64,000 nt of DNA from an uncultured Verrucomicrobiae bacterium. GTDB lineage: Bacteria; Verrucomicrobiota; Verrucomicrobiia; Limisphaerales; Palsa-1400. This document shows, in pieces, positions 11,124 to 35,745 of this stretch. Where the stretch lies: the NCBI GenBank assembly GCA_963764165.1, contig CAVXRD010000004.1:448001-512000 (forward strand). The letters run 5' to 3'. Under the pieces are notes generated by a model. That model saw nothing but the letters and a program-made list of their open reading frames with translations, searched no databases and was not told the DNA's origin. The position numbers and the translations under genes are program-made. How positions within the stretch are numbered: the first letter of the stretch is position 1; each line of letters begins with the position of its first letter.

Positions 11124-11237
11124 GAACGAACCCCCTGGGCCGGGTTTAAGTGTATGGCCTGTTTTTTCCGTGAGACCCCTATTTTTCCGGTTTCGGATTG
11201 CAGAAAATCCACCAATGAAATGCGGGAAAACGCCAAG

Positions 11238-11245
11238 TGCCGCAA
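11238..11245 (+). promoter_or_regulatory. TGCCGYAA late-gene motif (terS)
   Basis: TGCCGCAA starts 26 nt before ATG 11264. Confidence 0.7.
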
Positions 11246-11263
11246 TTTGCGCACGAGGGCGGA

Positions 11264-11860
11264 ATGCGCCGCACCAGGAAATCGAAAGAAAAAACGCCGA
11301 GGCCAAAAACTGTCAAACAAACTCCACCGCCGACAGCACCGGCACCGCCCTCTCCCGTCAATATGGAACCAATTATTGACACGATTTCCGCCCTCGAATT
11401 GGAAGAGATCACCGGCTTGACGGACCGTCGGCATCGGCAGATCGCGGACGAAGGGTATTTCCCGAAGCCTGACCTGGGGAAGTACCGGCGCGACGAGACG
11501 CTCCGAGGAATGTTCCGCTACTACCGCGAGCGCAACGACAAAGACACACTCACGGCTGAACGCGTTTTGCTCACCAAGGAAAAGCGGATCGAGCAAGAAA
11601 GCATTAATGCCGAGCGTTCCGGCCAGCTCGAATCGAAGGAAGCGATCGCGAAAAAGATTTTCGCGCTCGGGGAGGAAATAAAGTCGACGCTCAATTTTCA
11701 ATTGACCGACCGCCTGCCGGCATTGAATGCAGGCCTCGACGCGCCGGCACAGCGCATTAACAACCGCGCTGTGTTTCTGGAAATTCTCAAACGCTTTCAG
11801 GAATTCGCCAAACGGTGGATCGCGCCCGATTCACCAGCCGAGAAAAAGGAAACCGCCTAA
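11264..11860 (+). CDS. terS: Terminase small subunit (Nu1-like)
   Basis: ISALELEEITGLTDRRHRQIADEG HTH plus coiled coil; overlaps the terL start. Confidence 0.85.
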   Translation: MRRTRKSKEKTPRPKTVKQTPPPTAPAPPSPVNMEPIIDTISALELEEITGLTDRRHRQIADEGYFPKPDLGKYRRDETLRGMFRYYRERNDKDTLTAERVLLTKEKRIEQESINAERSGQLESKEAIAKKIFALGEEIKSTLNFQLTDRLPALNAGLDAPAQRINNRAVFLEILKRFQEFAKRWIAPDSPAEKKETA

Positions 11861-13779
11861 TGGACGTAATGGCAAAGGCGTTGCACGACGCCTGCGAGCC
11901 GCCCGACATGCGTCCCACGCCTGAGTGGGCGGCGGAGTATTTGGAACTGTCTCCCGGTGGTTACGCCATCCCGGGATTTTTTCACGTTGAGAAATCCCGC
12001 CAGCTCCTCGAGCCGCTGCGCGCACTCGATGACGACCTTACCCGGCGTGTTTCTGTGTGCGCGGCCGTGCAGGGTGCCAAGTCGCTCATCCCGGATGTCT
12101 GGATCCCGCGCGTTCTCAGCGACCGTCCGGGTCCCGCCATGTTTGTAATGCAAACGGAACAGATTGCGAAACAGCACGCGGAGGTCCGGCTCATTCCGAA
12201 CATCTCAGGCTGCAAACCTCTGCAGCGTCTTCTTCCAGACAATCGTCACAAGGCGCGAACCAAGGAGATTATTTTCAAAAATGGTGTCCCTCTCTACATA
12301 TTCGGTCCGGCCATCAGCAACGCGCAGTCGAAGTCCATCCGTTATCTCGCGATCGACGAAGCGTGGCTGATTGCCGCCAACCAACCCGGCCGCATTTTCG
12401 AGTTCCTTAACCGGACCAGCAAATACGACGAGATCGGCAATTCGAAGCAGCTGATCATTTCCCAGGGCGGCGACCTCAAAGTCGATCCGGACGGCAAAAT
12501 TATCGGCGACGATTGGGCCATCATCTGGCATGAAGGCTCGCAGGAACTTTGGACCGTGCCTTGTTTGCACTGCGGATTCTTTTTCGTTCCGCACTTCACG
12601 ATCAACGTCCCCTACCCTGGCGGAAACGCGCCGACCGGCTATGACGACAAGGCGGGGATGAAATGGGACGCCAATGGTGAACAGGTCCGCTACGAATGCC
12701 CGCGCTGCCGTCAGGCTATGATCGATACCGACGCAACCAAGGCGCAATGGAACGATCGCGGCCTCTACACGGCTACCAATCCGGCAGCCCGCAACAATCG
12801 CAGCTTCTGGTGGCCAAAGCTCATATCGGCGAAGTGGGAGCCGCTGGTGCAAAAGTTTTTGAGGGCCATGCAATCAATGAAAAGCGGGCTAATTTTGCCA
12901 CTGAAAGAATTTGTGCAAAAGGATGACGCGGGGTTCTGGGACGAGCGGGCCCACACGACCGCCAACGAGATCGCCATCAGCACGGCTGATTATACGCCCG
13001 ATCCTCTCAAGTCCTGGCCTGACGAAAAATTCCGGTTCATGACGGTGGACTGTCAGGCCAACCTGCTTTTGTTTTTCGTCGTGATTCGCGCCTGGTCGGC
13101 GACTGGCGAGTCGCGCCGACTCTATCGCGGCCACGTCGAATCGTGGGAGGAGGTTCGAAAACTCCAGGAGAAATTCGGCGTGCCTTCCAAGTTCGTTGCG
13201 GTCGACTGTGGCTATGAGGCGACGAAAGTTTTCCGGCAATGCTGCCGGCATGTGGAGGAAGTCAGCGCCCGCGGCTGGACGGCGTTTCGGGAATCCGATT
13301 CCGAATGGTTTATCCATCATTTCAAGGACCGCAAAGAGCGCCGGATTTATTCCGAGGTGGAATTCGCCAACGCCGCGCTGGGTCTCAGCAACCCGGATAT
13401 GGCCAAATGGCTGGCCTCGGTTTCTCCGACCGCGTCAAAACTATACCAGCGCGGCAGCCTGCGCTGCTGGGTGGTCACTTGGTCGCGTCCGAGTGTGTCC
13501 GATGTCCTGGCGGGGCTGCGGGACGGCAAGGGCGCGCCGTTTCTGGCCCCAGCCGCCGACGCCAACGATCCGGAGGAAGCCGCTTATCGCCGCCACATGG
13601 GCAGCGAAATCAAGAAGCCCAAGAAAGACAAGGGCGACAAAGTCGAACGCATGCAGTGGGTGAAAGTTCTCCGCGATAACCATTACTGGTCCTGTGAAAA
13701 AATGCAGGTCGTGTGCGCAACAATTGTGGGTTGCATCAAGGTCGAACTGCCGGATGAGAGTGAAAAACCGGCCGCGTAA
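11860..13779 (+). CDS. terL: Terminase large subunit, lambda GpA family
   Basis: EWAAEY, AAVQGAKS (Walker A-like), SKSIRYLAIDE (Walker B), PCLHCG and YECPRC, MTVDCQ nuclease, DNHYWSCE. Confidence 0.95.
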   Translation: MDVMAKALHDACEPPDMRPTPEWAAEYLELSPGGYAIPGFFHVEKSRQLLEPLRALDDDLTRRVSVCAAVQGAKSLIPDVWIPRVLSDRPGPAMFVMQTEQIAKQHAEVRLIPNISGCKPLQRLLPDNRHKARTKEIIFKNGVPLYIFGPAISNAQSKSIRYLAIDEAWLIAANQPGRIFEFLNRTSKYDEIGNSKQLIISQGGDLKVDPDGKIIGDDWAIIWHEGSQELWTVPCLHCGFFFVPHFTINVPYPGGNAPTGYDDKAGMKWDANGEQVRYECPRCRQAMIDTDATKAQWNDRGLYTATNPAARNNRSFWWPKLISAKWEPLVQKFLRAMQSMKSGLILPLKEFVQKDDAGFWDERAHTTANEIAISTADYTPDPLKSWPDEKFRFMTVDCQANLLLFFVVIRAWSATGESRRLYRGHVESWEEVRKLQEKFGVPSKFVAVDCGYEATKVFRQCCRHVEEVSARGWTAFRESDSEWFIHHFKDRKERRIYSEVEFANAALGLSNPDMAKWLASVSPTASKLYQRGSLRCWVVTWSRPSVSDVLAGLRDGKGAPFLAPAADANDPEEAAYRRHMGSEIKKPKKDKGDKVERMQWVKVLRDNHYWSCEKMQVVCATIVGCIKVELPDESEKPAA

Positions 13780-13947
13780 ATTGCGTGCCGTAACGAAGCG
13801 CGGGCAGAAATGCACCGGGAAATCGCCGATCACGAGGTAAAATTTCCACCGATGCCCGGTCAGGGTTTGCCTGCCGTAACATCGCGATAGGGAATGTGCG
13901 CAATAAGTTTATCGCCCAATTGCTGTCCTTAGTGCATTCTCTTTAAC

Positions 13948-14208
13948 ATGTCTGGACTCCAAACACGTCAGGTTCTCACGTTTCAAGGATACATCCTATT
14001 CACCGGCGACCGTCAGACGCTTCCCATCACGATAAAAGCCTTTGACATGACGGGAGCGGCCGCAAAGCTCGCGCGCATCGTCAGTGACCAGCCAGGGGAA
14101 GCGATCGGGATCCAATTGCGCCAAGTCAAAGAAACTCTGATCGTGCCGGCCAATGGAGCGAGCATAAACCACTGGGGTCGGCGTCGCGGGCCAAACAGCG
14201 GAAGCTAA
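13948..14208 (+). CDS. Phage hypothetical protein
   Basis: 86-aa ORF; two TGCCGTAA motifs upstream (13786, 13872). Confidence 0.6.
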   Translation: MSGLQTRQVLTFQGYILFTGDRQTLPITIKAFDMTGAAAKLARIVSDQPGEAIGIQLRQVKETLIVPANGASINHWGRRRGPNSGS

Positions 14209-14212
14209 CCGA

Positions 14213-14758
14213 ATGTCGCACACGGACAAAAGCGCGCGGCAAGTTGTCACCAGTTTTCCCCAGCAGGAAATTGCAGCGCCGGACGCCGACATCGACGAGC
14301 GCAACGGATGGACCGACGAGCCGGATCGCGGTAACCCTCTTTCGCGCTTCGAGGAGAATCCATTTGACCGCAACGAACGAGTTTCGCTTTGCGCGGATGA
14401 ACTCGGGTTGCTCTTTCAGTGGCTGCTGTTCGGCGGATCGACCCGGAACCGCTCGCGCAGCGCGCCGGTCAACCAGCGGTTGAAAGACATCTGCAAGAAA
14501 CGCGAGATGAAGAAAATCTTGCGACGGCCGAGCATTATCGGCCATCGGCTGGTTGCCATGCTTTTGCGGTTGCGGCCCGATCTGCTAGACGGACATAGCG
14601 CGGCCTCCGTTTCGCGAAAGATGCGCATCTCCCCGCGCATGATGGCGCTGCACACAATGTCGTTCGGAGAGAATTTCCCACTGGCGTCAAAAACAATTCG
14701 GCGGACCAGCAAGGTTGTGAAAGAGGAAGTGTTGCGGGCCAGACACCGCGCAACTTGA
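14213..14758 (+). CDS. Putative DNA-binding regulator (C-terminal HTH-like)
   Basis: LRPDLLDGHSAASVSRKMRISPRMMALH resembles an HTH; basic C-terminus. Confidence 0.55.
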   Translation: MSHTDKSARQVVTSFPQQEIAAPDADIDERNGWTDEPDRGNPLSRFEENPFDRNERVSLCADELGLLFQWLLFGGSTRNRSRSAPVNQRLKDICKKREMKKILRRPSIIGHRLVAMLLRLRPDLLDGHSAASVSRKMRISPRMMALHTMSFGENFPLASKTIRRTSKVVKEEVLRARHRAT

Positions 14759-14943
14759 AAAAGTATGACGAGGGCGAATTTAGCCGTCACGGAGAGGACG
14801 GTCGGCGATTGTTTGTCTGACCTTCGCCGGAGTTGTTACCGTGGCGCCGGCCGCGTTTCTCTGACCGGCGATACTGGTTTTTTAACCAGCATCCAATAAT
14901 TCGGACACGCTTTCATTTTGTTGTCCGCATTTCTGCGGGCCAG

Positions 14944-14970
14944 CCGCGCCGAAGCTTTAGCGAAGGCGGG
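14944..14970. repeat. REP-like repeat CCGCGCCGAAG-N6-CGAAGGCGGG (also 21351-21377 and inverted at 18556-18582)
   Basis: Three near-identical copies in late-gene intergenic spaces. Confidence 0.8.
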
Positions 14971-14996
14971 TGCCGTAAGTACGCCCCTCAGTCGAA
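14970..14996 (+). promoter_or_regulatory. TGCCGTAA late-gene motif; 27 bp identical to 29759-29785
   Basis: GTGCCGTAAGTACGCCCCTCAGTCGAA directly before ATG 14997. Confidence 0.8.
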
Positions 14997-15308
14997 ATGA
15001 CTGACGAGCAGGCGGCCACTTTAGCGGGGCAAATCACCCCAATGACCAATCAATTGATTGGCGAGGATCTTCTGCAGGGCATCGAGATTCCGCAATTGCT
15101 TGAATGGCGCCGGATGGCCTGCGAGGAATTGTTCGAAGGCATCATCCAATCTACCAGCGCCGGCGACACCTCGGCCACCCGCTTCGGAAAAGTCGACCCA
15201 AAAACGCGGATCCGCCTCATCAATAAAACCCTCTGGCTCCGCGATCCTGTCGCCTTCCCAATGAACCAGCCGGTGAAGCGCACGCGGCCGTTTTACACGT
15301 TTGGTTGA
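14997..15308 (+). CDS. Head completion protein (gpW position)
   Basis: About 100-aa ORF between terL and portal, coupled to portal. Confidence 0.6.
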   Translation: MTDEQAATLAGQITPMTNQLIGEDLLQGIEIPQLLEWRRMACEELFEGIIQSTSAGDTSATRFGKVDPKTRIRLINKTLWLRDPVAFPMNQPVKRTRPFYTFG

Positions 15309-17796: not shown

Positions 17797-17831
17797 AAAT
17801 TTCCTGTGCCGTAACTTCGCATCGGGAGCGA

Positions 17832-18347: not shown

Positions 18348-18611
18348 GGGCAACGACGTCTGGCTCGGATCCCAGCGCGAAAAGGAAATCGGCTGGCTGC
18401 AGGCGCGGATGAAGGAGACGCCCGACGGCAAACAAAAGATGCGCCTGGCGCGGGAAGCGCGGTCGCTCCGGCACGGCACGGACATTTTGCGGGGCGGCCG
18501 CGACTACGACTTTAGCTCGGCGCTGCGCGGAGTGCGGCTGCCGGCGGTTCACTGACCCGCCTTCGCCGAAGCTTCGGCGCGGCGAGCAGTAGAGAAGAAA
18601 ATAGAAATTTT

Positions 18612-19565
18612 ATGGCAACATTAAGCGCAGCGGAAATTCTGGCGGACACACTGGACGCCTTCAAAACGGAAGTGCCGATTCTCTCGGCGGTTTCCACCGA
18701 CCTTTCGAGCGCGCGCGCGGTCAAGGGTTCGCAGATCATCGCGCACATTTCGGTTTTGCCGACCGTGCAGGCGTATGACCCGGTGACAGGTTTCGCCAAC
18801 GGCGCCACGGACGCCAGCAACCTCTTGCAGGACGTGCCGGTGACGATGAACTACTTGCCGCACGTCCCGACCGACGTCACTTACCTGGATACGATCGCGT
18901 CGCAAAAGGATTTGTACAAGGAGGCGATTCGCAATTCCACGTACGTCCTAGGAAAGAACGTCGTCGATACGCTGCTTGGTTTCATCAACGGCCCGGGCGG
19001 AAACAATTTTTCCAACAAGTATCTCGCCTCCCTGGCGAATACCACTTTGGACACCGTCGAAGCCGTGAGGTCGCTCTTGAACACGAACCACGCCGCGACT
19101 GTGGGCCGCTTTGGAATCGTCAGCACCGGGTTTGCCCAGGCGCTGCAGGAAGATCAACGCACAATGAGCGCGCTGTTCTACTCGCAGCTCAACGGCGACA
19201 ACGCGCTGCGCCGCTTTCAGCGCATCGGCGGTTTCAGCAACATTTGGGAATACCCGGATATGCCGAACAACGGCATCAATCTGAGCGGCGCGTTTGCCGA
19301 TCGCCGGGCCTTCACCGTGGCCACCCGCATTCCGACGCTGGGCGCTTTCGCCGGCAATCCGCTCAACGCGCCGATGACGGCCGCGTTCGAAGTCGTCGAG
19401 GATCCCGACAGCGGCCTGTCGCTCCTGGGCATCGTGTGGATTACCAACGGCACGTTCAACATGAACATGACGCGCACGTTCCTGTTCGGCATAAGCGCTG
19501 GCAATCAGGGCACTGGCAACGGCCAGAAGACGGACAACGCTTTGGTCTACACGACCACGGCCTAA
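18612..19565 (+). CDS. Major capsid protein
   Basis: 317 aa in the canonical position; AT-rich leader; HK97/P22-coat-like pattern (RFGIVS..IGGFSNIWEY..AFTVATR). Confidence 0.8.
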   Translation: MATLSAAEILADTLDAFKTEVPILSAVSTDLSSARAVKGSQIIAHISVLPTVQAYDPVTGFANGATDASNLLQDVPVTMNYLPHVPTDVTYLDTIASQKDLYKEAIRNSTYVLGKNVVDTLLGFINGPGGNNFSNKYLASLANTTLDTVEAVRSLLNTNHAATVGRFGIVSTGFAQALQEDQRTMSALFYSQLNGDNALRRFQRIGGFSNIWEYPDMPNNGINLSGAFADRRAFTVATRIPTLGAFAGNPLNAPMTAAFEVVEDPDSGLSLLGIVWITNGTFNMNMTRTFLFGISAGNQGTGNGQKTDNALVYTTTA

Positions 19566-19600
19566 CGCGCAGACGGCGCAACGCATCTCGGAAAGCAAAT

Positions 19601-20251: not shown

Positions 20252-20252
20252 T

Positions 20253-20879: not shown

Positions 20880-20880
20880 T

Positions 20881-21276: not shown

Positions 21277-21301
21277 GATCATTTTTTGTGTGGGGGGAAT
21301 C

Positions 21302-21340
21302 GCGGGCGGCTTCTGTCGGGAGGCCGCCCGCATTTTTTTT
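21302..21340 (+). terminator. Rho-independent terminator ending the head operon
   Basis: GCGGGCGGC..GCCGCCCGC stem followed by A and T8. Confidence 0.85.
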
Positions 21341-21403
21341 CCAACCCTTGCCGCGCCGAAGCGCCAGCGAAGGCGGGTGCCGCAATTCCGCTGCTAGCTC
21401 AGA

Positions 21404-21727: not shown

Positions 21728-21728
21728 C

Positions 21729-22556: not shown

Positions 22557-22589
22557 CCGCCTCTACCGTAACTCCGGGCCTCGGGCACG

Positions 22590-23627
22590 ATGGCAAAGGC
22601 CCCTTACAGTCCCGAACTGGATACGCTGGAGTTCCGCATCGAGGCGGCGCTGAAAACCTATTTGCTCTCGGTCGGCATCACCGGCAATCCGAACATTTAC
22701 ACCGGTGAAGAGACTGAGGACCGCGAGCTGCCCGCCATCGTTTGTGAATGCCACGGCGGCCCAGAGAATCCTCCCGGAACGAATAATTTTCTTGAGGACG
22801 CCACTGTTTGCATTGTCTCGAATGTTGACGAAACGGAGTCCGACGCGGATCCATTCCCGCCAGCCAGGCGGCTCGTTGAGCAAGTCAAGTATTGGTTGTG
22901 GGATGCTCTTCTCGACAGCAACGCGAATGAGCACTTGCACGAGATATTGACCGCTCAGGTGCCAAACCTTCAGGTGCAAAACCAAATTCAATTTCACGGC
23001 CCGGTCATCGCGATCCACGATCGCAAGATGATCACGGAATTGAAATTCACGATGCAGGCGTATCAGGGCTTCAACGGCGTGGCTGGTCCGGCGCCGGGAT
23101 TTTCGCTCCACACGCTTCTGCCCGTTGCCTGTGGCGTGGCGCAAGGAAGCACGGAATGCCACTGCCCGGCCGGGTCGACGACGATCGGCATTCTGCCAGG
23201 GATCGCCGGGAAAACGTATCAATACACTTTCCTGGTCAGCGGCCTGGTCGAGCTCAAGAGTTACACTGGCGGAACGCAGAGCGGCTTTTTTTACACGGGC
23301 GGTTCCAACGCCAACGATGGCAACGCCAATTCGTACGGACTCGTCGTCACCACGCCCGCTAATGCGCCCAACGTCACCGCCAGCCAAGGCCAGTTTTTCC
23401 TGAACGCGTCCACTGGCGGGGCTGGGAGGTACCAAAACAACGTCGTTCAATACAAAGTGACACTGACAGCTCAGGCGGGACAGGCGATGGTGCTGACCAC
23501 CAATTCATTCGACGGCTTCCAAGCCAGCAACCCCAACGCTCTGACCGTTCCCGGAATCACGTCCCCTGCGCAGCCGTTCAACGGGCAATTTATACGGCTC
23601 GATCTGGTCAACGCGGTGCAGGTGTAG
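22590..23627 (+). CDS. Tail terminator-like protein with C-terminal beta-sandwich extension
   Basis: NIYTGEE..LPAIVCE N-domain; TACCGTAA at 22564. Confidence 0.55.
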   Translation: MAKAPYSPELDTLEFRIEAALKTYLLSVGITGNPNIYTGEETEDRELPAIVCECHGGPENPPGTNNFLEDATVCIVSNVDETESDADPFPPARRLVEQVKYWLWDALLDSNANEHLHEILTAQVPNLQVQNQIQFHGPVIAIHDRKMITELKFTMQAYQGFNGVAGPAPGFSLHTLLPVACGVAQGSTECHCPAGSTTIGILPGIAGKTYQYTFLVSGLVELKSYTGGTQSGFFYTGGSNANDGNANSYGLVVTTPANAPNVTASQGQFFLNASTGGAGRYQNNVVQYKVTLTAQAGQAMVLTTNSFDGFQASNPNALTVPGITSPAQPFNGQFIRLDLVNAVQV

Positions 23628-24501
23628 CCGTTGCGTAACTGAGATCGACGAATTCGAGGTCGGGGTTAAACCACAGCACCGCCTCGCCCACCGTCGACGT
23701 GCATTTCAAAAAGAACTGACAACGGGAAAGTAGGTGCGCCTCAATTAGAACATCCTTGCCGAGGCGGTAGCCATTCAGCGAACGCTTTTGGAACACGTTC
23801 TTGTCCGTCCTGGATCGCACGGAGTTGTAACAAACAATTCGCCCTTCGTAGCGGTGCTTGAACATCTCCAGGTACTGCGCCTGGTCCGTGGCAACGAAAA
23901 TTCTTGCATCTGGATGCGCGGACAGCATCGGATCAATCCGGTCGAAATAATCCTGAGGCTCGATAATCCTCATGGCCCGCGGATTGGCCACGTTGGTGGC
24001 CTTGTCGGTCCCCCGCACATGAACTCCAATCACAAAACGCCCACTCATGTGGCGACCGTGGAACTTGTCAATTTCCTCGCGAATGTGGCTTTTGATTTTG
24101 ACATACTTTTTAATCAGAGCCGCGCCCTTGCTCCTCTGGAGCCGGTACCAGTCTGGATCGTAATCGGCTTTCGCAAAATAAACCCCGTAGGGATAAGGAA
24201 ACACGCTCTCGGGATCTTGGAAGTGGAGATGGTGCAGTTCATCCGCAGTCAGCTCGAACAATTTCCCAGGGACAGCGGCCCGCACATCCTCGTAAGTCAA
24301 CCCGGCCACCGGCTCAAAGTAATAATTCCACATGTTGGAGCCGAAGCGTAAATCATAAAAATCATTGCGACCGCTGCCGGCCCGCTTCCCAAAATAAACC
24401 ACCGGGAAATAGCCGTTTCGCTCGCAAAGAGACAGTTGGTTCAACGCGAAAAGGAGATATCCGAAAAACCCGACATTGTGGCTCTTAAGGGTGATGACCA
24501 T
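23608..24501 (-). CDS. NodZ / O-FucT-like (GT23-type) fucosyltransferase, moron
   Basis: VGFFGYL, NMWNYYFEP, IGVHVRGTDK, IFVATDQ, DVLIEAHLLSRC..STVG. Confidence 0.85.
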   Translation of the reverse strand: MVITLKSHNVGFFGYLLFALNQLSLCERNGYFPVVYFGKRAGSGRNDFYDLRFGSNMWNYYFEPVAGLTYEDVRAAVPGKLFELTADELHHLHFQDPESVFPYPYGVYFAKADYDPDWYRLQRSKGAALIKKYVKIKSHIREEIDKFHGRHMSGRFVIGVHVRGTDKATNVANPRAMRIIEPQDYFDRIDPMLSAHPDARIFVATDQAQYLEMFKHRYEGRIVCYNSVRSRTDKNVFQKRSLNGYRLGKDVLIEAHLLSRCQFFLKCTSTVGEAVLWFNPDLEFVDLSYATATPAPR

Positions 24502-24781
24502 GATCGCGTTGAATTCGGCGCAAGCAGCGATGGAAACGGTCCGCAAACTCTCTTCTTTCCGGAAACGCGAGATAGAGCGAACGGTCGAGGGTTTGAGAGA
24601 GTCGATGGCAAAAGACCCCAGGGCAATGCAGTCGGCGACGAAATACCTCCGCATCCAGCCCGCCGCGATGACAACGGCCGGAAGACGATTTTTAAGAAAT
24701 GTCTTCAACGGGTACCAATGATAGCGATCCCTGGCGGCCCTGTCAGGCTTTAATGTGCCGTAACTTCAACCGTAGGGCGAT

Positions 24782-25195: not shown

Positions 25196-25207
25196 GCGCG
25201 GCGGTCC

Positions 25208-25822: not shown

Positions 25823-27154
25823 ATGGGCCTTCACGTCAAAACATCCGTCGACGGCCACGGCTTCGCCGCCGGCCTGAAAAAGATGGAGGAGGACGCCGAG
25901 CATTTCGGCAAAAACCTCTCAGAGAAAATCTCCGGGCATTTCGGAGAAGCAGTCATGGGGGTTATCCCCGGTCTGACTAGCTCCATTGCAGGCGTTTTTG
26001 CGGCGGAAAAAATCAAGGAATCGCTCAAGGAATTTGGCGAGCAGGCCGAACGCATTGAATTTGGCTCCATCCGTCTCAACGTCGATCCAGAAACATTTCA
26101 GCGGCTCGACCGGGTGATGAAAGTCACCGGCGAGACCGCCGAGACGGCCGCGACTGCCTTCGACAAACTGGCTGTGTCCGCCACGAAAATCGAGGACGGC
26201 CGCGACAAGACAGGAGAGCTGCGCCAGGCCTTCGCGGAGCTGGGTGTCACCACGGATGAGCTGGCGAGCAAGGATTACCGCAAAATATTTTTCCAGATCG
26301 CCGAAGGCTTGAAGGATATCGAGCCGAGCAAAGAGCAGATCGCTGCGCTGCGCGAGGTCTTCGGCAAGCAGGGCGATAATTTGCTGCCCGCGTTCAAGCT
26401 TGGTTTTGACAGCGACTACGCCACGGCCGGCGTCCTGGATGAGAAGGAATTGCAGGGCATCAAGGCGGTGAATGATGAATGGCGCAAACAGGGTGCAACC
26501 ACGGCTGGAATGTGGAACACCACGAAACGGGCCGCGCTTGAGGCTGCGTCCGGCCTCGCCCTCATGATCAACCCATTTAGATGGGCACAGAATTTGGGCA
26601 CGCCTGATGAGGACGGATACCACCAAAAATTCATGGCCGAGGAAGCCAAACGCCTCGCCGAGATCACCGCCGAGAAGCGGAAGCAGGCGGCCGCGCAGGA
26701 AGCGCTGCATGAGGCGAATAGGAAATCGGACGAAGCGGATCGCAAGAAAGCCGCCACGATCGACAAGGAGACGGAAGCGCTAAAGGAGCGCAACCGGATC
26801 GCCGCCATGACGCCTGAGGAAAAGCGGCTTTATTTGCTCGATCAAATCCGGCAGATGCAGGGCGAACTGGATTACGGCGCCGGAAACAGCCGGGCGGATG
26901 ACGCGACGTTGCGCAAAAAAATTGCCGAAGCGCAGCATGAAATTTCGCAGCTCGACAAGGTTAAGCCGAAGGCCGTCCACGAACATCTTTCTCATCTAGG
27001 CAACCAGGCCATCGGCGGAATCATGATGGGACACGACCGGCTAAACGAGATGGCCGCGCATACGCGCCGGTCGGCGGAACACCTCGCGAGCATCGACAAG
27101 AAAATGGCCGCGCGGCAGCCGTCCGGCCGCACGCAGCATCACGACCTGCCGTAA
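25823..27154 (+). CDS. Tape measure protein (short, 443 aa)
   Basis: VDGHGFAAGLK start, RLNVDPETFQRL, AFAELGV, VFGKQG..LLP helical repeats. Confidence 0.8.
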   Translation: MGLHVKTSVDGHGFAAGLKKMEEDAEHFGKNLSEKISGHFGEAVMGVIPGLTSSIAGVFAAEKIKESLKEFGEQAERIEFGSIRLNVDPETFQRLDRVMKVTGETAETAATAFDKLAVSATKIEDGRDKTGELRQAFAELGVTTDELASKDYRKIFFQIAEGLKDIEPSKEQIAALREVFGKQGDNLLPAFKLGFDSDYATAGVLDEKELQGIKAVNDEWRKQGATTAGMWNTTKRAALEAASGLALMINPFRWAQNLGTPDEDGYHQKFMAEEAKRLAEITAEKRKQAAAQEALHEANRKSDEADRKKAATIDKETEALKERNRIAAMTPEEKRLYLLDQIRQMQGELDYGAGNSRADDATLRKKIAEAQHEISQLDKVKPKAVHEHLSHLGNQAIGGIMMGHDRLNEMAAHTRRSAEHLASIDKKMAARQPSGRTQHHDLP

Positions 27155-27171
27155 TACCGCAGTCATGGTGT

Positions 27172-27546
27172 ATGAATATAACACCTGAACGGATTGCGGA
27201 CGCGATCGCTCGCGGCCTCTGCGCAAGATGTTTGCGCCGCAAACATCGTCCCGGCATGCGAACGTGCAGCTATTGCGGCCATCTGGACGCGGCACACAAA
27301 AAAAGCCACGTCGAGAGACTGAAAAAGAAAGGCGGCTGTTTCCGCTGCGCACGGCCCGCGCTGCCTGGGCGTAAACGTTGCGAGCCATGCACCATATTTC
27401 ACAATGCCTATTGCGTCGCGAAGAGAAAATCATGGAAGGCGGCTGGGCTTTGCACGGGCTGCGGAAAGGGCACGCCTGCCGAGGGCAAGACCAGATGCCA
27501 GCGGTGCATAGACTGCGGCGCGCGCCGCAAGCGGTCGATGCCGTAA
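27172..27546 (+). CDS. Basic multi-CxxC protein
   Basis: Six CxxC pairs in repeated GLCxxC..RCxxC units. Confidence 0.75.
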   Translation: MNITPERIADAIARGLCARCLRRKHRPGMRTCSYCGHLDAAHKKSHVERLKKKGGCFRCARPALPGRKRCEPCTIFHNAYCVAKRKSWKAAGLCTGCGKGTPAEGKTRCQRCIDCGARRKRSMP

Positions 27547-27564
27547 GTACGCCCCAGAGTCACA

Positions 27565-28338: not shown

Positions 28339-29405
28339 TGAACCTCCCTGAGCCACTTCCAGAGACAGACGATTTCCGCCTCAAAGGTCTTTTCAGTTGG
28401 TGCAACCGCCTTCGCGATTACGCGCAGTCAATAACCCTGATGCGCAGCGCCGACTCCAGGCTTGAGCGCACGCCTGCCGGCACGCTGCTTCGACCGGCGC
28501 GGGATTCAACGCCGCGCGATCTCGGCATTCGCAGCGTCACGAATTGGTATCTGCCTCCGATCACTATCACCGAGACGGATCGCGACGGCTTTTCCAATCC
28601 GCGCCAATTCACCTGGAATGGTTTGATCGCGTTTGGCCCCTGGGTCGGCGGCGCGGCCGCCAACGAAGAAAACATTTACGGAACCGGCGGATACGGCAGC
28701 GACACTTTGTTTGCATTCGATTACGGAGTATCGGGTTTCGTTGACGGAGAAAACACCAGCCCGCCAAGCAATTTTGTGTGGGACATCGATCCAGTTGTCT
28801 GGCCGGGCTTCGCCGATTTCCAGGACGCGGCCGACAACGCGGCCTTCTACCTCGTCGACTTGCCGCCGACCCTTCGCAATCAAATCGTGGGCGGCACATT
28901 CACTCAGCAGGATCAGCGCGAAACAGGACTCACCGAATGGCTGTTTGACTACGCTTACGCTAACGGACAGCCCACCTTGCCCCAGATTTACGACCGCTAC
29001 CCTTTTGATTCTACCAATGGCACATATTACGGCGACGGCGTCGGAAACGGCACCGGCAGCGGAGCGGCTACAGATGATTACACGGCTTATATCGAGCCGA
29101 GCTATTTCCCCGGCTCAACGCTCTACATTGCGAACCCCAACAGACTGCGCACCAGTCGCCGTTACTTTTACCAGGATGCCTATTTCGGGGCGACGATTGA
29201 GCTGAACATGGGATGGGTTGACTTGAACGTGGACGCCCGCCGCTGGATGGCCGCCGGTTTGGTGGAAAACCACATGAGAGTGCAGATCGCTACGAACGGG
29301 TCGGGAGTAATGATCCCACCGCCAAACGCCTCAGTCGGCCTGGACGGCAACCTTTACGTCCCCGTCAACCAGGACTCAAATTACTATCCCGCCAACACGA
29401 TTTAG
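28338..29405 (+). CDS. Tail / baseplate protein
   Basis: TGATG-coupled; NRLRDY..ERTPAGTLL N-terminus; aromatic/Gly-rich. Confidence 0.55.
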   Translation: MNLPEPLPETDDFRLKGLFSWCNRLRDYAQSITLMRSADSRLERTPAGTLLRPARDSTPRDLGIRSVTNWYLPPITITETDRDGFSNPRQFTWNGLIAFGPWVGGAAANEENIYGTGGYGSDTLFAFDYGVSGFVDGENTSPPSNFVWDIDPVVWPGFADFQDAADNAAFYLVDLPPTLRNQIVGGTFTQQDQRETGLTEWLFDYAYANGQPTLPQIYDRYPFDSTNGTYYGDGVGNGTGSGAATDDYTAYIEPSYFPGSTLYIANPNRLRTSRRYFYQDAYFGATIELNMGWVDLNVDARRWMAAGLVENHMRVQIATNGSGVMIPPPNASVGLDGNLYVPVNQDSNYYPANTI

Positions 29406-29599
29406 CCATAGCCATGCTTCGCCGCCTCGGCGTCCGCGACGCTGGCGAGCCATCCGCTCAGATTGGATTTGCTCTTCTGCGCGGCCTTGACCCAAGCCGA
29501 TTTTTGCCGGGGGCGGACACGCAGCTTCACGATAGCGGTGGATGAATCCTGGCGGTGATTTCCCGGCCAATCGGCTTTTGGGTTGTTAGAATCGTTCAT
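29402..29599 (-). CDS. Ribbon-helix-helix DNA-binding protein
   Basis: IVKLRVRPRQKSAWVKAAQKSKSNLSGWL. Confidence 0.7.
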   Translation of the reverse strand: MNDSNNPKADWPGNHRQDSSTAIVKLRVRPRQKSAWVKAAQKSKSNLSGWLASVADAEAAKHGYG

Positions 29600-29750
29600 T
29601 GCATCTCGCTCATTAACGGAAGTTTCCTGTCAAGAATCTGAATCGCATAGTCCAGCGGGGCAACCCCTTTGAGCTTTGCCGCGCGCCGCAGCCTGGCGGA
29701 AAGGGTTTCCGGAAGTCGCGCCAGGCTAATCTGGCGGGGCTTCGGATCGC
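29596..29750 (-). CDS. Second RHH-like small protein (start unclear)
   Basis: ISLARLPETLSARLRRAAKLKGVAPLDYAIQIL; stop coupled to the next RHH gene. Confidence 0.5.
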
Positions 29751-29787
29751 ATGCATACGTGCCGTAAGTACGCCCCTCAGTCGAACG

Positions 29788-30621
29788 ATGGCGATGCTCA
29801 ATGGAATCATTCTCCGAAGTGACGGGACCGCGCCCAATCCGTGCCAGCGATGGCCGGAAGGCTGCCCCATGCCCGGACCCATCCCGACCTCGCGCGCGGG
29901 CGATCTCAATAACAGCGTGGCGCACAGCCACATTTACTTTCGGCCCATTCAAACTCCGTTCGTCGATATCGGCCAAAACAACGCCATCATCATCGGCGGT
30001 GTCCGCCGCGCGCGCATCGATGCGGAGACGGGGGCTTTCACGATTCAACTTCTCCAGGGGAATTATTCTGTCGCGGTGGGCGCCGAAGTTTTCGAAATCA
30101 ACATCCCGTCCGACGCCGGCACGTTTGAGCTTTCGGCGTGCATCGTCACCGCTATGAATTTCCAACCGCCGGCGTCCAATACTTACCAGGGCAACTTCCC
30201 GTCCACCGCGGATGATTTTGTCCTGCCCGCCAACGCGGTGAATAACCCCGGCGCGCCGGTCGCCACTGGCTGGACGCAAATTGTCCAAGGCCCCGGCAAA
30301 TTCCAAATCGAAGCCAGCGTGATGGTTTACGCGACCAGCCGCGACGGCAACCAGCAGGACAACGAGACGTATACCGCGTATTTGTGGGACTCGACCGACG
30401 CCGTCATTGTCGGCCAAACCGTAACCGTCGACAACATATTCACCGGCACGCAGGGGCAGATCGTTTTGCGCGGCACGGTGAACATCGTGGGAGCAACGCA
30501 AATCCTCCTGGAAGTCTACGCCGCCGGCAACCCCAACACAGCCGACCAAAGCGCCGCCCCGAATTCCGTGGGAACAATCCTCATGGATCAATCCTCAATT
30601 TCCATCACGCGACTGAATTAA
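29788..30621 (+). CDS. Tail fibre adaptor / structural protein
   Basis: N-terminal prophage-tail-like domain (GAFTIQLLQGNYSV); motif at 29760. Confidence 0.6.
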   Translation: MAMLNGIILRSDGTAPNPCQRWPEGCPMPGPIPTSRAGDLNNSVAHSHIYFRPIQTPFVDIGQNNAIIIGGVRRARIDAETGAFTIQLLQGNYSVAVGAEVFEINIPSDAGTFELSACIVTAMNFQPPASNTYQGNFPSTADDFVLPANAVNNPGAPVATGWTQIVQGPGKFQIEASVMVYATSRDGNQQDNETYTAYLWDSTDAVIVGQTVTVDNIFTGTQGQIVLRGTVNIVGATQILLEVYAAGNPNTADQSAAPNSVGTILMDQSSISITRLN

Positions 30622-30625
30622 TTTT

Positions 30626-33600
30626 ATGATTTTCACAGAAGCCAACGAAGGAAACGAAGGGAAAATTGCGAGGAGCGCTTTGCCCAAGTTTCTCCGATTT
30701 ATTTTCCCCCTTTGTGTCCTTTGTTACCTTCTGTTAAATCCCCGGGTCCAGGCCCAGCTCGTCACCAGCCCGACCGGGCGAGCGATCGCCACCATCACCA
30801 ACGGGACCAGCAACCTTGTCCTGACGGCCCAGGGCGGCAGCGCCCCGCCCGTCTGGGCCCCGGCATCGGGCTCCGGAAGCTCGACGACCATCAACGGCCT
30901 GACCGGCGCCGTCAGCGTCATCATCACAAACATCGGCGGGAATTCAGGGATGACAGAAGTCTTGTTGACCAACGGAAACTATTTGCTGATCTCCAATAAT
31001 TGGAGCCAGGTCGCCACGCTCGCGTTGCTTGCGGCCCAGGGAACGGCCGACACAAATTACGCGCTAGCGATCGGCGCAGCGCTGACGAACGCGCTCGCCG
31101 CGCAAGGCGTCTCCGTGACAAATTTCGCGAATGCTGGTCTGGCTGCGCAGGGAGCGGCCGTCACGAATTTTGCCAAAGCAATCGGATCCGCAATCACCAA
31201 CGCGCTCGCCGCGCAAGGAACGGTGCAGACCAATTACACCCTCGCCGTCGGCGCGGCGATTACCAACGCGCTGAATTTTGAAATCGCGGCCGCCGGAGCG
31301 CAAGCCACCAATTACGCCAACGGCATAAGTTCCGCGATTTATGTCTCGCTGGGATCGGCGGGAGCGGCGATTACCAATTTCGTCAACGCCGGTTTGGCGG
31401 CCCAGGGCACGGCCACCACGAACTTTGCCAAGGGCGTCGGAACATCCGTGACCAATGCGCTGGCCACACAAGGAATGGCCAACACGAATTTCGCCAGCGG
31501 CATCGGAACCAGCGTCACCAACGCCATCGCCGCCGGTGGAACGGCCGCGACCAATTACGTTATCGCCTCGCTCGCCGCGCAAGGCACGGCCACCACGAAT
31601 GCGATCAAAGCGGCCACGAATACAATCGCGTCCGGATCGCTGGCCGGCGCGCTCCCCTACTCCGTTTACCCGTCGGGAATTTCAGGAACAGTTCTGTCAA
31701 ACACAGGCAGCGCGGTCGTGTGGGCCGCATCGCCGACCGGCGGTGGAACGGCAGGCATCGGCACGCTCAACGGCGTCGGCACCAACACGTATTTGACAAA
31801 CGCCACGACCAGCGGCGAGACCGCGACAAATCTAGCCATTTCGACCGGCGCGACAAAAACCAACGGGACCGGATCGGCAGGCTTCACCGAAAACATCAAC
31901 CTCGGCCCGAGCGGAATTTATCAAACCGTCGTCTCAGAAAACGCCGTCCACAAATGGAGCGTCCTGCAGACGGGAACGCTTTGGGAAATCCTCGATGGCA
32001 ACAGCCAGGTCGCCTTCGCCATCAATCAGGCCTCCGGCGATGTCATCTTTGGCAACGGAGGATTGTTGACCAACATCCTCATTTCGGCGCTGCAATCCAA
32101 CAACGCGGCCGCGGGAACGTACTACGCATTGACCAATACCGGCAGCGGCCTGGCTCTCATGCAGATTACCGCCATTGCCGGCGTCAACGGTCAGGCCACC
32201 AATACTTACACCACGAACGGTTTCACCAGCGGCGAAACAGCGACCAATCTGACCATCTCGACCGGCGCGACAAAAACCAACGGGACCGCCTCGGCGGGAT
32301 TCACGGAGAATATCAACCTTGGCCCGAGCGGGATTTATCAAACGGTCGTTTCCCAGAATGGCGTGGGAAAATGGCACGTCTTGCAGACCGCAACACTTTG
32401 GGAAATTCTCGACTCGGCCAACAATGTCGCCTTCCAAATCAACCAGGCATCCGGCGATGTCATTTTTGGCAATGGCGGATTGTTGACAAACATTCTGATC
32501 GCCGGAATTTCCAGCAACGGCGTCACGGCCGGAAGCGTTTTCGTCGTCACCAACACAGGCGCGGGCCTCGGCTTCATGCTCGCCCCTGCGGCCAGCGGGA
32601 TCAACACGAGCGGCGGCTTTGGCACCAACAATTATTTGACCAACGCCACGACCAGCGGCGAGCACGCCACCAATTTGACCATCGCCAGCGGCAACGCCGG
32701 CGGCGCAACGAACCTGAACGCGAATGCCTTCACCGGAGGCACAACCGCACTCACCAATCACAACGCGGCCGTGGCCAATTTCGGAAGCAACGTGGTTACG
32801 GCCGCAACGAACGTCAGCGGAGCCATCGCCAATTCCGGAACTTTCTCCACCGACGGCGGAAACATCAGCAGCGACGCTCTTGGCCACCTGTCCATTTCGC
32901 CGAATGAAAACAACGGCGTTGGCTTGACTGTTAGCCAGGATCAGGCCGGCGACGACATTGCGGATTTCACCGATTGGAACGGCAATTTGATCTTTCAGCT
33001 CGACGGACCGAATCAGCAAGCGAAACTGGCCGCGCCCTGGATTTACGCTGGCAACGGCAGCGACCTCACGACCCTTAACGCCTCGCAATTAACCAGCGGC
33101 ACGGTGCTTCCCGCGCGTCTCGGCGGCGGATCCCCCAGCTCGAGCACGGTTTTGTACGGCAATTCCACTTGGGGCCCCATCGTCGGCGGCAGCGGGATCG
33201 CGACCAGCGGCGGCGCCGGCACCAACAATTATTTAACGAACGCCACCACGAGTGGAGAGAGCGCAACGAATCTCACCATCGTGAGCGGCAACATTTCAGG
33301 GGCGACCAACCTGCCCGTTTCGGCGCTCAAGACAAACGGCCTGACGGCCGGAAGCGTCTACGTCCTGACCAATTCTGGAAGCGGAATGACCGTGATGGTT
33401 GCTCCGTCTGGAGGCGGCGGAGGAGGCTCGGGAATTCCAACCATCGCAGGCGTCGGCACCAACACGTATTTAACCAATGCGACGAGCAGCGGCGAGATTG
33501 CGACAAACATCAGCATTATCAGCGGTAATATTTCTGGAGCGACAAATCTCCCGCCGTCAGGCCTGAGCAGCGGCAGCGCGTCTGCAGGGCAAGTGCTCGA

Positions 33601-35695
33601 ATGGAGCGGCACGGCTTGGGTTCCAACGTCCATCAGCAGCTATCTCAATTTCACAACGGTCGGCGGCGTCAACGATGGCGTCACTCTAAATGATGCAGCG
33701 TTCTCGAACGCGTGCGCAGCCCTCGGCCCGGCAGGCGGCGTGCTCTATATGCCGAAAGGCAGCGGCTACAAATTCAAAGGCGGCATCATCATCACCAATC
33801 AGCAGATCACGATCCAGGGCGACGGCATGGGTGTCTACGGCGGATTGGGCGAGCCGGACGTTTTCAGCAGCGTCATCATCTGGACCAATCTGACGACCAA
33901 TCTCTTCACCTTCACAGGACAGTCAATAACATTTCAAAATCTCTCAGGATTCTGGACAAACACCGCCGCGCCGACCGCTGGCGCGTTCATCGCCGTCACC
34001 ACCAATTGGGACGGCGTCAATGGACAGGTGCAATGCAACTGGCTCAACGTGCTTTTGGATGGTGGATATCGCTGTGTTGATTATCAAGCCGGGCAGAACT
34101 GGCAGGCGACTCAATTGGAATGGGTGCGCTGGTGGATGGACGGCATCCGCATCAACAATTTGGCCAATCCAGACATCGGAGGCTGGACGATCACCGGCAG
34201 CGGTTGGGCTGCCGTGGCTGGCCTGCAATACACTATAGGAGCGCATGTTGCTAACAGCGCCATTTGCTGGAACGGATCAGGCGGCGGCTCGATCATCAAC
34301 ACGGGCGGAGGCGCATTCAATTGGGGCGGGTATAGCGACCCCGGCGGCTACACCAATGCCATCTTGATCCAGCCGGAATATCCATCCGGCGCGGATTCCA
34401 CCAGCACGTTCTTCATTAACAACGCGCTCATCGACAATTATCTTGTGCATGGAATTTACTCCGAGCCAGGCACGGGATCTTTCTCCAACATCAAATTCGT
34501 TCAGGTCCAAATGGAGTCTTTTGTCGGCGGCGCATCGTCAGCAATTTTGCTAACGGGCGGAATTGGAAATAACGGCACCATTGACGGGTTTTCAACAGAA
34601 CAGCCTATTGCCAATCAAATCACCTTGAGCGGAATGGCTGGCATCGGCCTCGGTTTGATTAACAACAGCGGAGTGGAACCTAGCGTCGAATTGCTCAGCG
34701 CATCGACCTGCTACCCATTCTCTGATTTCACCGGCATTTTTGATCCCTTCGCCGGAAATCCACAATTGAAGATCGGATCATGGTTTTTGCAATCGCTTAA
34801 CACGAACGATACCACCCTCGGATTCAACGGCTACTTCACCGGAAGCGGTTTGACCGCGAAGCAAACCGGCGCGGTCGCGACCATCCAGGGACTCAACCAG
34901 GGCGGCATGTTCATGACGCTCTACGGCCAGACAACCGCTGGAGCCGTCGTCGGCAGCCCCACGCAAATATTCGCCGTGCGGCCAGGCGGCATCGGCATCG
35001 GAACGTTCACGCCCGCGGCGGAACTCACAGTCAACGGGGCGGCCATTGTGAGCAACAGCGTGACCGCAAACGGCGGATTCATTGGGCTCGGCAGCGCCCT
35101 GACCAATTCCGCGGGACACAATTATCAGGACGGAGTCCAGGCAACGAACATGTTTGCCACGCTCGCCGCAACTCAGCCGACGAACCTTACTTTGACACAG
35201 ATCGCCAGTCAGACGTCCACGGCGATCAACGGCGCCGGCATAACGAACATCCCTTTGTCTGGTGCGGTTGCTGGCGGAAACACCATCGCTACAAACGGCC
35301 AGGCAACCGCAACCAATAATATTGGTTTTGTGCTTCGAGCCGAAGCTTTGACCCTCAACACCTCGGCAAATTATTTCGCGCCATCTTACAATTCCACCGG
35401 AGGCACGGAGGTAAACAAGGCGTCGGGGCTGCTCGGCGGAGTCTACGGAGACAACGTGACTGTCAACTTCTCTGCCACCAATTTGCCTGGGACTAACGTC
35501 TACATAATTTGGAGAACCAACCAGATTTCTTGTGCAACCAATGTGATTTCCGGCCCCATCACGCCATTGCAACCGTACACATTTTCAAACCCACTCACCG
35601 TGACAAACGGAACAACGTGGGATTTCATCATCACGAACAGCGTAAGCACGACCGGGTACTACATCACGATGGCAGTGAGCCAGAGGCCGCTATGA
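30626..35695 (+). CDS. Giant Thr/Asn/Gly-rich tail fibre/tailspike with pectate-lyase-like beta-helix domain
   Basis: LAAQGxxxTN repeats, five GTNxYLTNATTSGExATN-like units, GGVNDGVTLNDAAFSNACAA..GGVLYMPKG..ITIQGDG; signal-peptide-like N-terminus. Confidence 0.8.
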   Translation: MIFTEANEGNEGKIARSALPKFLRFIFPLCVLCYLLLNPRVQAQLVTSPTGRAIATITNGTSNLVLTAQGGSAPPVWAPASGSGSSTTINGLTGAVSVIITNIGGNSGMTEVLLTNGNYLLISNNWSQVATLALLAAQGTADTNYALAIGAALTNALAAQGVSVTNFANAGLAAQGAAVTNFAKAIGSAITNALAAQGTVQTNYTLAVGAAITNALNFEIAAAGAQATNYANGISSAIYVSLGSAGAAITNFVNAGLAAQGTATTNFAKGVGTSVTNALATQGMANTNFASGIGTSVTNAIAAGGTAATNYVIASLAAQGTATTNAIKAATNTIASGSLAGALPYSVYPSGISGTVLSNTGSAVVWAASPTGGGTAGIGTLNGVGTNTYLTNATTSGETATNLAISTGATKTNGTGSAGFTENINLGPSGIYQTVVSENAVHKWSVLQTGTLWEILDGNSQVAFAINQASGDVIFGNGGLLTNILISALQSNNAAAGTYYALTNTGSGLALMQITAIAGVNGQATNTYTTNGFTSGETATNLTISTGATKTNGTASAGFTENINLGPSGIYQTVVSQNGVGKWHVLQTATLWEILDSANNVAFQINQASGDVIFGNGGLLTNILIAGISSNGVTAGSVFVVTNTGAGLGFMLAPAASGINTSGGFGTNNYLTNATTSGEHATNLTIASGNAGGATNLNANAFTGGTTALTNHNAAVANFGSNVVTAATNVSGAIANSGTFSTDGGNISSDALGHLSISPNENNGVGLTVSQDQAGDDIADFTDWNGNLIFQLDGPNQQAKLAAPWIYAGNGSDLTTLNASQLTSGTVLPARLGGGSPSSSTVLYGNSTWGPIVGGSGIATSGGAGTNNYLTNATTSGESATNLTIVSGNISGATNLPVSALKTNGLTAGSVYVLTNSGSGMTVMVAPSGGGGGGSGIPTIAGVGTNTYLTNATSSGEIATNISIISGNISGATNLPPSGLSSGSASAGQVLEWSGTAWVPTSISSYLNFTTVGGVNDGVTLNDAAFSNACAALGPAGGVLYMPKGSGYKFKGGIIITNQQITIQGDGMGVYGGLGEPDVFSSVIIWTNLTTNLFTFTGQSITFQNLSGFWTNTAAPTAGAFIAVTTNWDGVNGQVQCNWLNVLLDGGYRCVDYQAGQNWQATQLEWVRWWMDGIRINNLANPDIGGWTITGSGWAAVAGLQYTIGAHVANSAICWNGSGGGSIINTGGGAFNWGGYSDPGGYTNAILIQPEYPSGADSTSTFFINNALIDNYLVHGIYSEPGTGSFSNIKFVQVQMESFVGGASSAILLTGGIGNNGTIDGFSTEQPIANQITLSGMAGIGLGLINNSGVEPSVELLSASTCYPFSDFTGIFDPFAGNPQLKIGSWFLQSLNTNDTTLGFNGYFTGSGLTAKQTGAVATIQGLNQGGMFMTLYGQTTAGAVVGSPTQIFAVRPGGIGIGTFTPAAELTVNGAAIVSNSVTANGGFIGLGSALTNSAGHNYQDGVQATNMFATLAATQPTNLTLTQIASQTSTAINGAGITNIPLSGAVAGGNTIATNGQATATNNIGFVLRAEALTLNTSANYFAPSYNSTGGTEVNKASGLLGGVYGDNVTVNFSATNLPGTNVYIIWRTNQISCATNVISGPITPLQPYTFSNPLTVTNGTTWDFIITNSVSTTGYYITMAVSQRPL

Positions 35696-35745
35696 CCTTC
35701 ATGACATGCCGTAAGTTCGCGCTGGGGTCGGATGGCGAATGATCG

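Follow-up and report, generated by a model that had tools for sequence, protein, structure and literature searches.

How the late genes of a bacterial prophage are switched on is the question raised by a short DNA element that recurs in the stretch analyzed here, 64,000 nucleotides (nt) of the 7.0 Mb genome of an uncultured Verrucomicrobiae bacterium (contig CAVXRD010000004.1, positions 448,001 to 512,000; the window). The window contains a soil-type Verrucomicrobia prophage, which extended from an integrase gene (1048-2637) to approximately position 37,400 and whose plus-strand late genes included the small and large terminase, portal, S49 protease, major capsid, tape measure and holin-like genes, as judged by PHROG and Pfam matches. 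An initial annotation had reported the motif TGCCGYAA, here called the box, at a fixed distance before ten late start codons and had proposed that each late module has its own compact promoter. The box is real, conserved and phage-specific. On balance we lean towards the view that TGCCGTAA-B-T is a compact phage late promoter, bound by the helix-turn-helix (HTH) protein encoded at 14213, from which the host polymerase would make a leaderless or near-leaderless transcript starting at or immediately upstream of the ATG. No description of this box was found in a literature search, which was not exhaustive.

All twelve motif positions and all ten motif-to-ATG distances (26, 26, 25, 26, 26, 26, 25, 26, 28 and 25 nt) were recovered. 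TGCCGYAA occurred 17 times in the window compared to 7.5 ± 2.7 times in shuffled sequences, and none of 100 shuffles reached 17. Within positions 11,000 to 36,200 there were 13 copies of TRCCGYAA on the plus strand and none on the minus strand, and for ten of the 13 a late start from a list of 25 followed at 25-28 nt (binomial p ~3e-22, a value that is partly circular because the list of starts includes the ATGs of the initial annotation, six of which were matched by homologous starts in relatives). Consistent with the annotation, early genes lacked the element: none of 15 early starts had a box within 60 nt. Six other plus-strand copies (7005, 26276, 43383, 53646, 62638 and 62965) had no ATG at 20-31 nt. 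Nor was the motif equally common before host genes, where it was found at 24-28 nt for four of 4549 dereplicated open reading frames (ORFs) and at 25-27 nt for none. The copies were as follows.

11238..11247, plus strand: box TGCCGCAA-TT, 26 nt before the ATG at 11264 of the small terminase gene terS (phrog_57 match)
13786..13793, plus strand: box after the large terminase gene terL, the first of twin boxes upstream of the 13948-14213 gene pair
13872..13879, plus strand: second twin box, 76 nt before the ATG of ORF 13948
14971..14980, plus strand: box 26 nt before ORF 14997 (small gene ahead of the portal gene, gpW-like by position); kept in the related loci L074, L075 and L076
17807..17816, plus strand: box 25 nt before ORF 17832 (scaffold-like by position, after the S49 protease gene); kept in L074, L075 and L076
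21378..21387, plus strand: box 26 nt before ORF 21404
22564..22573, plus strand: box TACCGTAA-CT, 26 nt before ORF 22590; kept in L076, not seen in L075
24756..24765, plus strand: box 26 nt upstream of ORF 24782, which is tail tube-like by position; the box and an antisense moron lie back to back
27147..27156, plus strand: box overlapping the tape-measure stop codon, 25 nt before ORF 27172
27539..27548, plus strand: box overlapping the stop codon of ORF 27172, 26 nt before ORF 27565; kept in L075 and L076
29760..29769, plus strand: box 28 nt before ORF 29788
35707..35716, plus strand: box heading a lysis-like block, with an ATG at 35732 or 35746 and a holin Pfam match on ORF 36038-36832

Some of these entries need qualification. 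The copies at 14971 and 29760 had 26 identical bases in common and are therefore not independent. The further copies at 13786 and 13872 were present where reported; at 24 nt, the first was followed by an ATG that opens only 26 codons and the second by a GTG. The coordinate of the last box was also correct, while the start assigned to it, ATG 35732 (77 amino acids, aa), is uncertain, being rivalled by the more gene-like ORF 35746 (91 aa), which encodes a hydrophobic stretch followed by a charged helix.

Conservation was examined in close relatives. The relatives in this analysis were drawn from the order and class to which the window belongs. A scan with a portal profile gave 22 viral loci, three of which had 75-79% identity: L074 and L075, which are near copies of each other, and L076. 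There were five boxes 23-26 nt before ATGs in L075 and six at 25-26 nt in L076; in both loci they preceded the homologues of 14997, 17832, 21404, 24782 and 27565 and, in L076, also that of 22590. A logo of 25 sites gave the consensus TGCCGTAA-B-T, in which position 9 was never A and position 10 was T in 22 of the 25. The spacers had diverged between the window, L075 and L076 while the box before orthologous genes persisted, and the downstream CGC and G(G/T)CG that had been taken as conserved parts were absent from L075 and L076, whose spacers were G-rich. Twin boxes (590 and 703) were also found between terL and the 13948 homologue in L076, with no ATG at the fixed distance. Scans of viral contigs with the S49 protease alone and with an exact 17-mer gave no matches.

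Among 24 prophage regions chosen by capsid similarity, three (G307, G050 and G241) shared terL, portal and S49 genes with the window prophage, and in each a word of its own stood ahead of terminase, pre-portal, scaffold, tail or lysis starts: GTTGAC in G307, CCTGGACA in G050 and CGGTAACAAC in G241. Most of the 24 regions had neither terL/portal similarity nor a strong fixed-distance motif. A GCGTATAAC repeat in G105 was set aside, since it occurred on both strands and at variable distances; in the capsid-similar prophage L051 (G105:C336:1-20000), GGCGTATAAC was present 11 times on one strand and eight times on the other, at variable distances from starts.

Across 53 dereplicated loci outside the window lineage, 77 of 801 first ATGs had TTGAC 19-23 nt upstream; for antisense ATGs the count was 3 of 824, and for internal ATGs 23 of 2072. 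A second set of 40 genome regions had the word in this slot at 57 of 549 late starts, which came from 24 of the 40 loci. Host genes had a TTGAC peak at 35-38 nt and none at 19-23 nt; an apparent host peak at -22 was due to a repeated element and disappeared after dereplication. Other words in the slot were RTAGCG (L179, L180), CAACGT (L181, L182, L206) and T(T/G)GACG (L183). In a large marine-type subgroup (L098-L116) the slot held TTCACT, TTTACA or GCGACA, with AT-rich bases before the ATG. The GTAA-B-T part of the window box lay 19-24 nt before the ATG in the window, L075 and L076, the slot that TTGAC(A) occupies in most relatives, and from this position and the intermediates GTAACA and GTAGCG we read the GTAA-B-T box as a re-specified member of the family TTGAC(A) box. 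What the window adds is this re-specified box, further variant words and a named candidate reader.

The ten window sites were compared with known promoter classes. The annotation had stated that the spacing fits neither sigma70 -35/-10 elements nor the sigma54 consensus, and indeed neither pattern was present. There was no TANNNT at -12 at the ten sites and one among 149 family sites, with no TTG peak upstream. The hexamer starts 19-24 nt before the ATG, not approximately 35 nt as for a sigma70 -35 element, and a -35 element paired with a -10 element inside the gene was rejected; TANNNT was found 15-18 nt behind TTGACN at 0 of 79 sites. Sigma28 promoters have a GCCGATAA -10 element with an upstream TAAA; no (C/G)CGATAA was present at the ten sites. 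No conserved bases were detected in the 6 nt of logo upstream of the box, or by eye in 40 nt. A GNRA-type hairpin with GYAA as its loop was dropped, as inspection by eye showed no pairing of TGCC with the bases that follow the loop. What was found is a site that recurs at a constant position ahead of late modules, as in the activator-dependent multiple late promoters of the P1, Mu and P2 kind.

The regions around the starts also differed, although kin are not independent and the p-values therefore overstate the differences. In the window (10 boxed and 15 unboxed starts), A+T content at -15 to -1 was 0.31 for boxed compared to 0.62 for unboxed starts (p = 2e-4), and folding over -25 to +25 was -12.8 compared to -5.9 kcal/mol (p = 1e-4), with no difference in folding from +1 (-9.0 and -9.7). 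The family gave -11.1 compared to -7.2 (p = 5e-8; 92 and 225 starts in 32 loci with at least two boxes). Pairing with the Shine-Dalgarno sequence was no better for boxed starts (-2.56 compared to -2.46 in the window, -1.53 compared to -2.01 in the family), and boxed genes were seldom coupled, with a gap of at most 10 nt to the upstream stop codon in 8 of 91 compared to 131 of 225. The host itself had a TANNNT peak at -12 (141 compared to ~40), a leaderless-type signature. Judged by these properties, boxed starts would be poorly accessible within a long message and ordinary if leaderless; the leaderless reading fits because the RNA upstream of boxed starts is GC-rich and folded and the host has leaderless-type promoters.

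Two further observations concern the form in which the box acts. Boxes without a start codon at the fixed distance comprised 13786, 13872, the L076 copies 590 and 703, and the G241 scaffold box, which lies 49 nt before an A-rich leader. Terminator-like hairpins were present within 90 nt upstream of 9 of 117 boxed starts compared to 21 of 938 other family starts. The terminator that the annotation had placed before one copy was the top row of a terminator scan whose total (33) was near that of shuffled sequences (27.5 ± 5.3).

21302..21341, plus strand: intrinsic-terminator-like hairpin (13 pairs, 21302-21331) and T-run, 37 nt before the 21378 box

Since copies are kept without a start codon at the distance and terminator-like hairpins lie upstream, the box probably acts as DNA rather than RNA.

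Clustering of the proteins encoded at the loci gave an HTH family near terS, whose member sits directly upstream of terS in most loci. The window candidate and its neighbor are listed below.

13948..14208, plus strand: 86-aa ORF of no known family, which adjoins the HTH gene in L074, L075 and L076 too
14213..14758, plus strand: HTH protein P0001, 181 aa, candidate box reader, with a predicted recognition helix at about residues 140-154

The product of ORF 14213 is an HTH protein: P0001 matched the family HTH profile with a probability of 86% and an E value of 5e-6 (6e-5 with an iterated hidden Markov model) and had three close database homologues. Among the regulators that had been suggested it was the good candidate; 5903, which had no Pfam match, and 29402, a ribbon-helix-helix-like moron by inspection, were not linked to the box. 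When the genome was searched with the family profile A5, nine identical short matches were returned elsewhere and 14213 was not recovered, so 14213 is distant from the family. The HTH gene was inside 22 of the 40 loci having at least 6 kb upstream, further off on the same contig in G070, G216, G137, G613, G426, G561 and G674, and on another contig only in G141. No HTH match was found in G534, which has no box in its locus. The product of ORF 13948 is, from its adjacency, a possible partner of the HTH protein. In one TTGAC subgroup (L077, L079, L087, L088, L071) a second conserved family of 170-185 aa (cluster 35) adjoined the HTH gene, and it too is a possible partner.

A model of P0001 had a predicted local distance difference test (pLDDT) score of 60, with approximately 80-87 over the HTH part and the N-terminal 57 residues poorly modelled. 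Sigma factors made up eight of its 11 top VIA rows (best Z 4.9, root-mean-square deviation (rmsd) 3.8, 65 residues aligned), and the nearest named Atlas clusters were Sigma70_r4 (0.76-0.77). The likeness of the modelled product to sigma region 4 is a weak lead. Scans of Pfam and PHROG gave no sigma match for P0001 or the other early ORFs scanned, and no sigma-2 part was detected. None of the sequence matches in Pfam, PHROG or PDB was to Lpa, Mor/C, Ogr or Q, a result that does not rule these out.

The recognition helix was compared with that of sigma factors, the host having three primary-type sigmas with the helix TRER(I/V)RQ. Residue R584 of sigma70 is described as reading the C at -31 (PMC2613000). 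At the equivalent helix position 2, aligned to TRERIRQ, the HTH proteins of 28 of the 29 TTGAC loci had K or R, whereas those of the six CGT-type-box loci all had P, E or F; four of the 29 show one TTGAC site only, and weak matches in L155 and a second L121 ORF were left out. K or R was also present in G050, G241, L183 and L094. In the window lineage the base matching the -31 C was degenerate (C in 8, G in 8 and T in 9 of 25 sites), as R584 mutants would predict.

The mechanism that we favor would proceed as follows. The HTH protein from 14213 would bind the box as DNA, reading it in the way that sigma region 4.2 reads -35 DNA, and once bound would recruit the host RNA polymerase, with transcription starting at or just before the ATG. 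Every late module would thus be served by a separate promoter, the 13948-14213 pair would be under positive feedback through the twin boxes that follow terL, and the box and the recognition helix would have changed together between lineages. A bolder form, in which a stand-alone sigma-4-like factor without a -10 element starts transcription at an ATG 13-17 bases from its site, and in which box and helix have been re-programmed together (TTGACA, TGGACA, GTAACA, RTAGCG, CAACGT, TGCCGTAA) to give orthogonal ten-base promoters, is put forward tentatively, as something we would not expect to hold in full.

There was also evidence that weighs against this mechanism. Because the 14213 gene is downstream of boxed genes, its first expression would need another route. 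No holoenzyme geometry known to us would place a sigma-4-like domain 13-17 nt from the start. G341, which has a clear box, gave no HTH match with A5. Of 293 starts located over 1 kb upstream of terL, 16 also had a TTGAC box, so that the family box extends to some degree beyond the virion block. Foldseek returned no match at E ≤ 0.001 for the P0001 or P0008 model; VIA returned no row with Z of at least 5, and the top rows for the better model, that of the TTGAC-type relative P0008 (pLDDT 80), were unrelated. The best PDB sequence matches were TetR-type HTHs. The variant boxes all fall in one poorly supported branch in which two changes suffice, so that the covariation of box and helix is not independent, and the CGT-type-box loci may share one origin. 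TTGAC loci tolerate very different helices (KQSLGRW, KQALSKS, RALISHY), and L180-L182 keep C at the -31-equivalent base despite the loss of K or R. Finally, an alternative alignment of the words, with TGCCG equivalent to TGACG and 4-5 nt further out, is possible.

The alternative that survives best is a single-element, -10-like promoter of the T4 late or phiEco32 kind, in which a phage sigma-like factor melts the box and transcription starts approximately 6 nt downstream, leaving leaders of 8-13 nt. The box is the sole conserved element and has A/T at its 3' side, some spacers have GG or GGG at -9 to -5, and there is a precedent in the phiEco32 element tAATGTAtA, as given in PMC4331800. We nevertheless consider this unlikely: Shine-Dalgarno pairing is no better at boxed starts than at others, the family form of the box is the -35 word TTGACA, the candidate protein has an HTH and no sigma-2 match, and the fixed distance from box to ATG is simpler if the ATG is itself the start.

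Alternatively, the box may be a promoter element read by the host, with region 4 of the host primary sigma being repositioned on the TTGACA form by a phage protein and the 14213 family being otherwise engaged, for example in antitermination. The common form of the box does equal the host -35 word, and the HTH helices vary widely among TTGAC loci. Furthermore, the 14213 family lies where Q-like genes sit, and AlpA, of a class whose fold joins an N-terminal ring to a C-terminal HTH, came sixth among the VIA rows for the P0008 model (Z 4.1, rmsd 5.7, 90 residues aligned), tied with unrelated rows. Against this, the variant boxes CCGTAA, GTAACA, RTAGCG, CAACGT and TGGACA occur within hosts of one order, the standard helix in the three primary-type sigmas of the host should not prefer GTAA-B-T, and G534, a single case of a locus with no box, gave no HTH match. 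We regard host reading as improbable, and the existence of variant boxes argues for a reader that is made by the phage rather than a host sigma.

If the box were instead a translation-initiation signal in the mRNA, bound by a phage protein inside long late transcripts, the tight distance from box to ATG would be accounted for, as would the copies at or over upstream stop codons (27147, 27539). The box also lies at the upstream edge of the 30S footprint. A role as an RNA signal has been proposed for the start-associated sequences (SAS) of mycobacteriophages (PMC3203893); these are 3-7 nt from the start and contain AGGAG, which the box lacks. The conserved copies without a start codon, the terminator upstream of 21378 and the greater folding of boxed initiation regions are all contrary to a signal in RNA, which makes this explanation quite doubtful.

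It is very unlikely that the boxes are repeated loading sites of the Q/AlpA type, at which an antiterminator is placed on a polymerase paused just after a sigma70 promoter. The AlpA hexamer GGGACG does resemble the TTGACG/TGGACG of L183, but loading of this kind requires a -35 and a -10 element on either side together with a -10-like pause, of which none was seen at the ten window sites or the 149 family sites except for the single TANNNT, and AlpA was not among the PDB sequence matches to E 10. Host sigma54 promoters (consensus TGGCAC-N-TTGC, with GG at -24 and GC at -12) can be dismissed as a most improbable source: the host has an RpoN box and the 25-nt copies place G and GC at -24 and -13/-12, but TGGC-N8/9-TGC was absent from the ten sites, the GC is not kept in L075 and L076, and relatives have TTGACA.

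Other features of the prophage were recorded around these genes. Between the last early gene and terS there was a region of approximately 1.5 kb (9700-11230) with many short palindromes and no PHROG-matched ORF. The antisense moron (23608-24708, minus strand) gave Pfam matches to NodZ and FUT8 fucosyltransferases and had an ordinary sigma70-like minus-strand promoter, CTGACA-17-TATCAT (24746-24718), back to back with the 24756 box; that box was kept in L075 and L076, with no intervening ORF in their sense-strand listing. Two small antisense ORFs (29402-29760, minus strand), ribbon-helix-helix-like by inspection, were inserted directly 5' of the duplicated box at 29760. ORF 27172-27546 (plus strand) has its own box and encodes a 124-aa protein with repeated CxxC motifs; the L075 and L076 listings had no CxxC-type ORF between the tape measure gene and the 27565 homologue. 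As in relatives, the major capsid gene at 18612 lacked a box and was preceded by an A-rich leader (A+T 0.87); it would be read from the box of the scaffold gene. GC hairpins resembling repetitive extragenic palindromic (REP) elements lay at 14948 (plus), 21355 (plus) and 18578 (minus), immediately ahead of two boxes and of the major capsid gene; this pattern had 14 matches in the genome, three of them in the prophage. A 15-base repeat was common to the right end of the prophage (37593) and DNA 3.2 kb left of the window (G000:C4:444766), and is possibly an attachment core or due to chance.

If the favored mechanism is correct, one small phage protein and a site of 6-10 bases, with no -10 element, would point a bacterial RNA polymerase at the start codon, a form of initiation allowed by no promoter class compared here, and very short orthogonal promoters could result. 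The variant boxes also name a protein and a residue for testing the TTGACA start box of a large and widespread family of Verrucomicrobia phages.

Compared with known systems, the box appears to work most like the Lpa-dependent late promoters of P1 and the leaderless late promoters of Lalka27a, while failing the defining sequence tests of each system compared. In P1 late promoters the Lpa site is near -22, and a -10 box and SspA are needed. The resemblance to P1 lies in the many late promoters, each marked by a short site, and in a single phage activator (here a candidate) whose gene adjoins the terminase genes; in the window the site would also be near -22 if the ATG is the start. P1 is described as having 11 late promoters and an Lpa site that is a 9-bp inverted repeat (PMC10695390), unlike the box, which is asymmetric and lacks a -10 hexamer; no Lpa similarity was reported in the Pfam or PHROG scans. 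For the Thermus phage Lalka27a, sixteen late promoters are described (bioRxiv 10.64898/2026.04.20.719267), mostly leaderless and with no reliance on antitermination, for which a phage factor was inferred; these keep a TANNNT-type -10 element (TAGGGT), whereas there is none here and the conserved word is at -22 to -17.

The candidate reader resembles AlpA, Q and GafZ in being a small protein with a C-terminal HTH, a short site in the -25 to -20 zone and a gene before the late block. The C-terminal HTH of AlpA reads one asymmetric hexamer, GGGACG, at -25 to -20 within a full sigma70 promoter that also contains a pause element (PMC9371919, PMC7969949), and GafZ binds between -10 and -35 (PMC11150451). 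Those proteins are described with one or two sites and a complete sigma70 promoter, in contrast to the 12 sites per genome and no -35/-10 frame found here. The SAS of Cluster K mycobacteriophages are similar in being asymmetric repeats at a fixed place before the ATG in one orientation, and differ in their closer spacing, in their AGGAG and in marking non-structural genes, according to the same source (PMC3203893). With sigma70 region 4.2 and its -35 element there is the likeness of the family box TTGAC(A) and of an HTH that aligns with TRERIRQ and has K/R at the R584 position (PMC2613000); the differences are that the hexamer ends 13-17 nt before the ATG, not approximately 30 nt, and the protein has no detected sigma-2 part. 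We read the box as a variant of activator-dependent late promoters, with a real chance that it represents a new mode of initiation.

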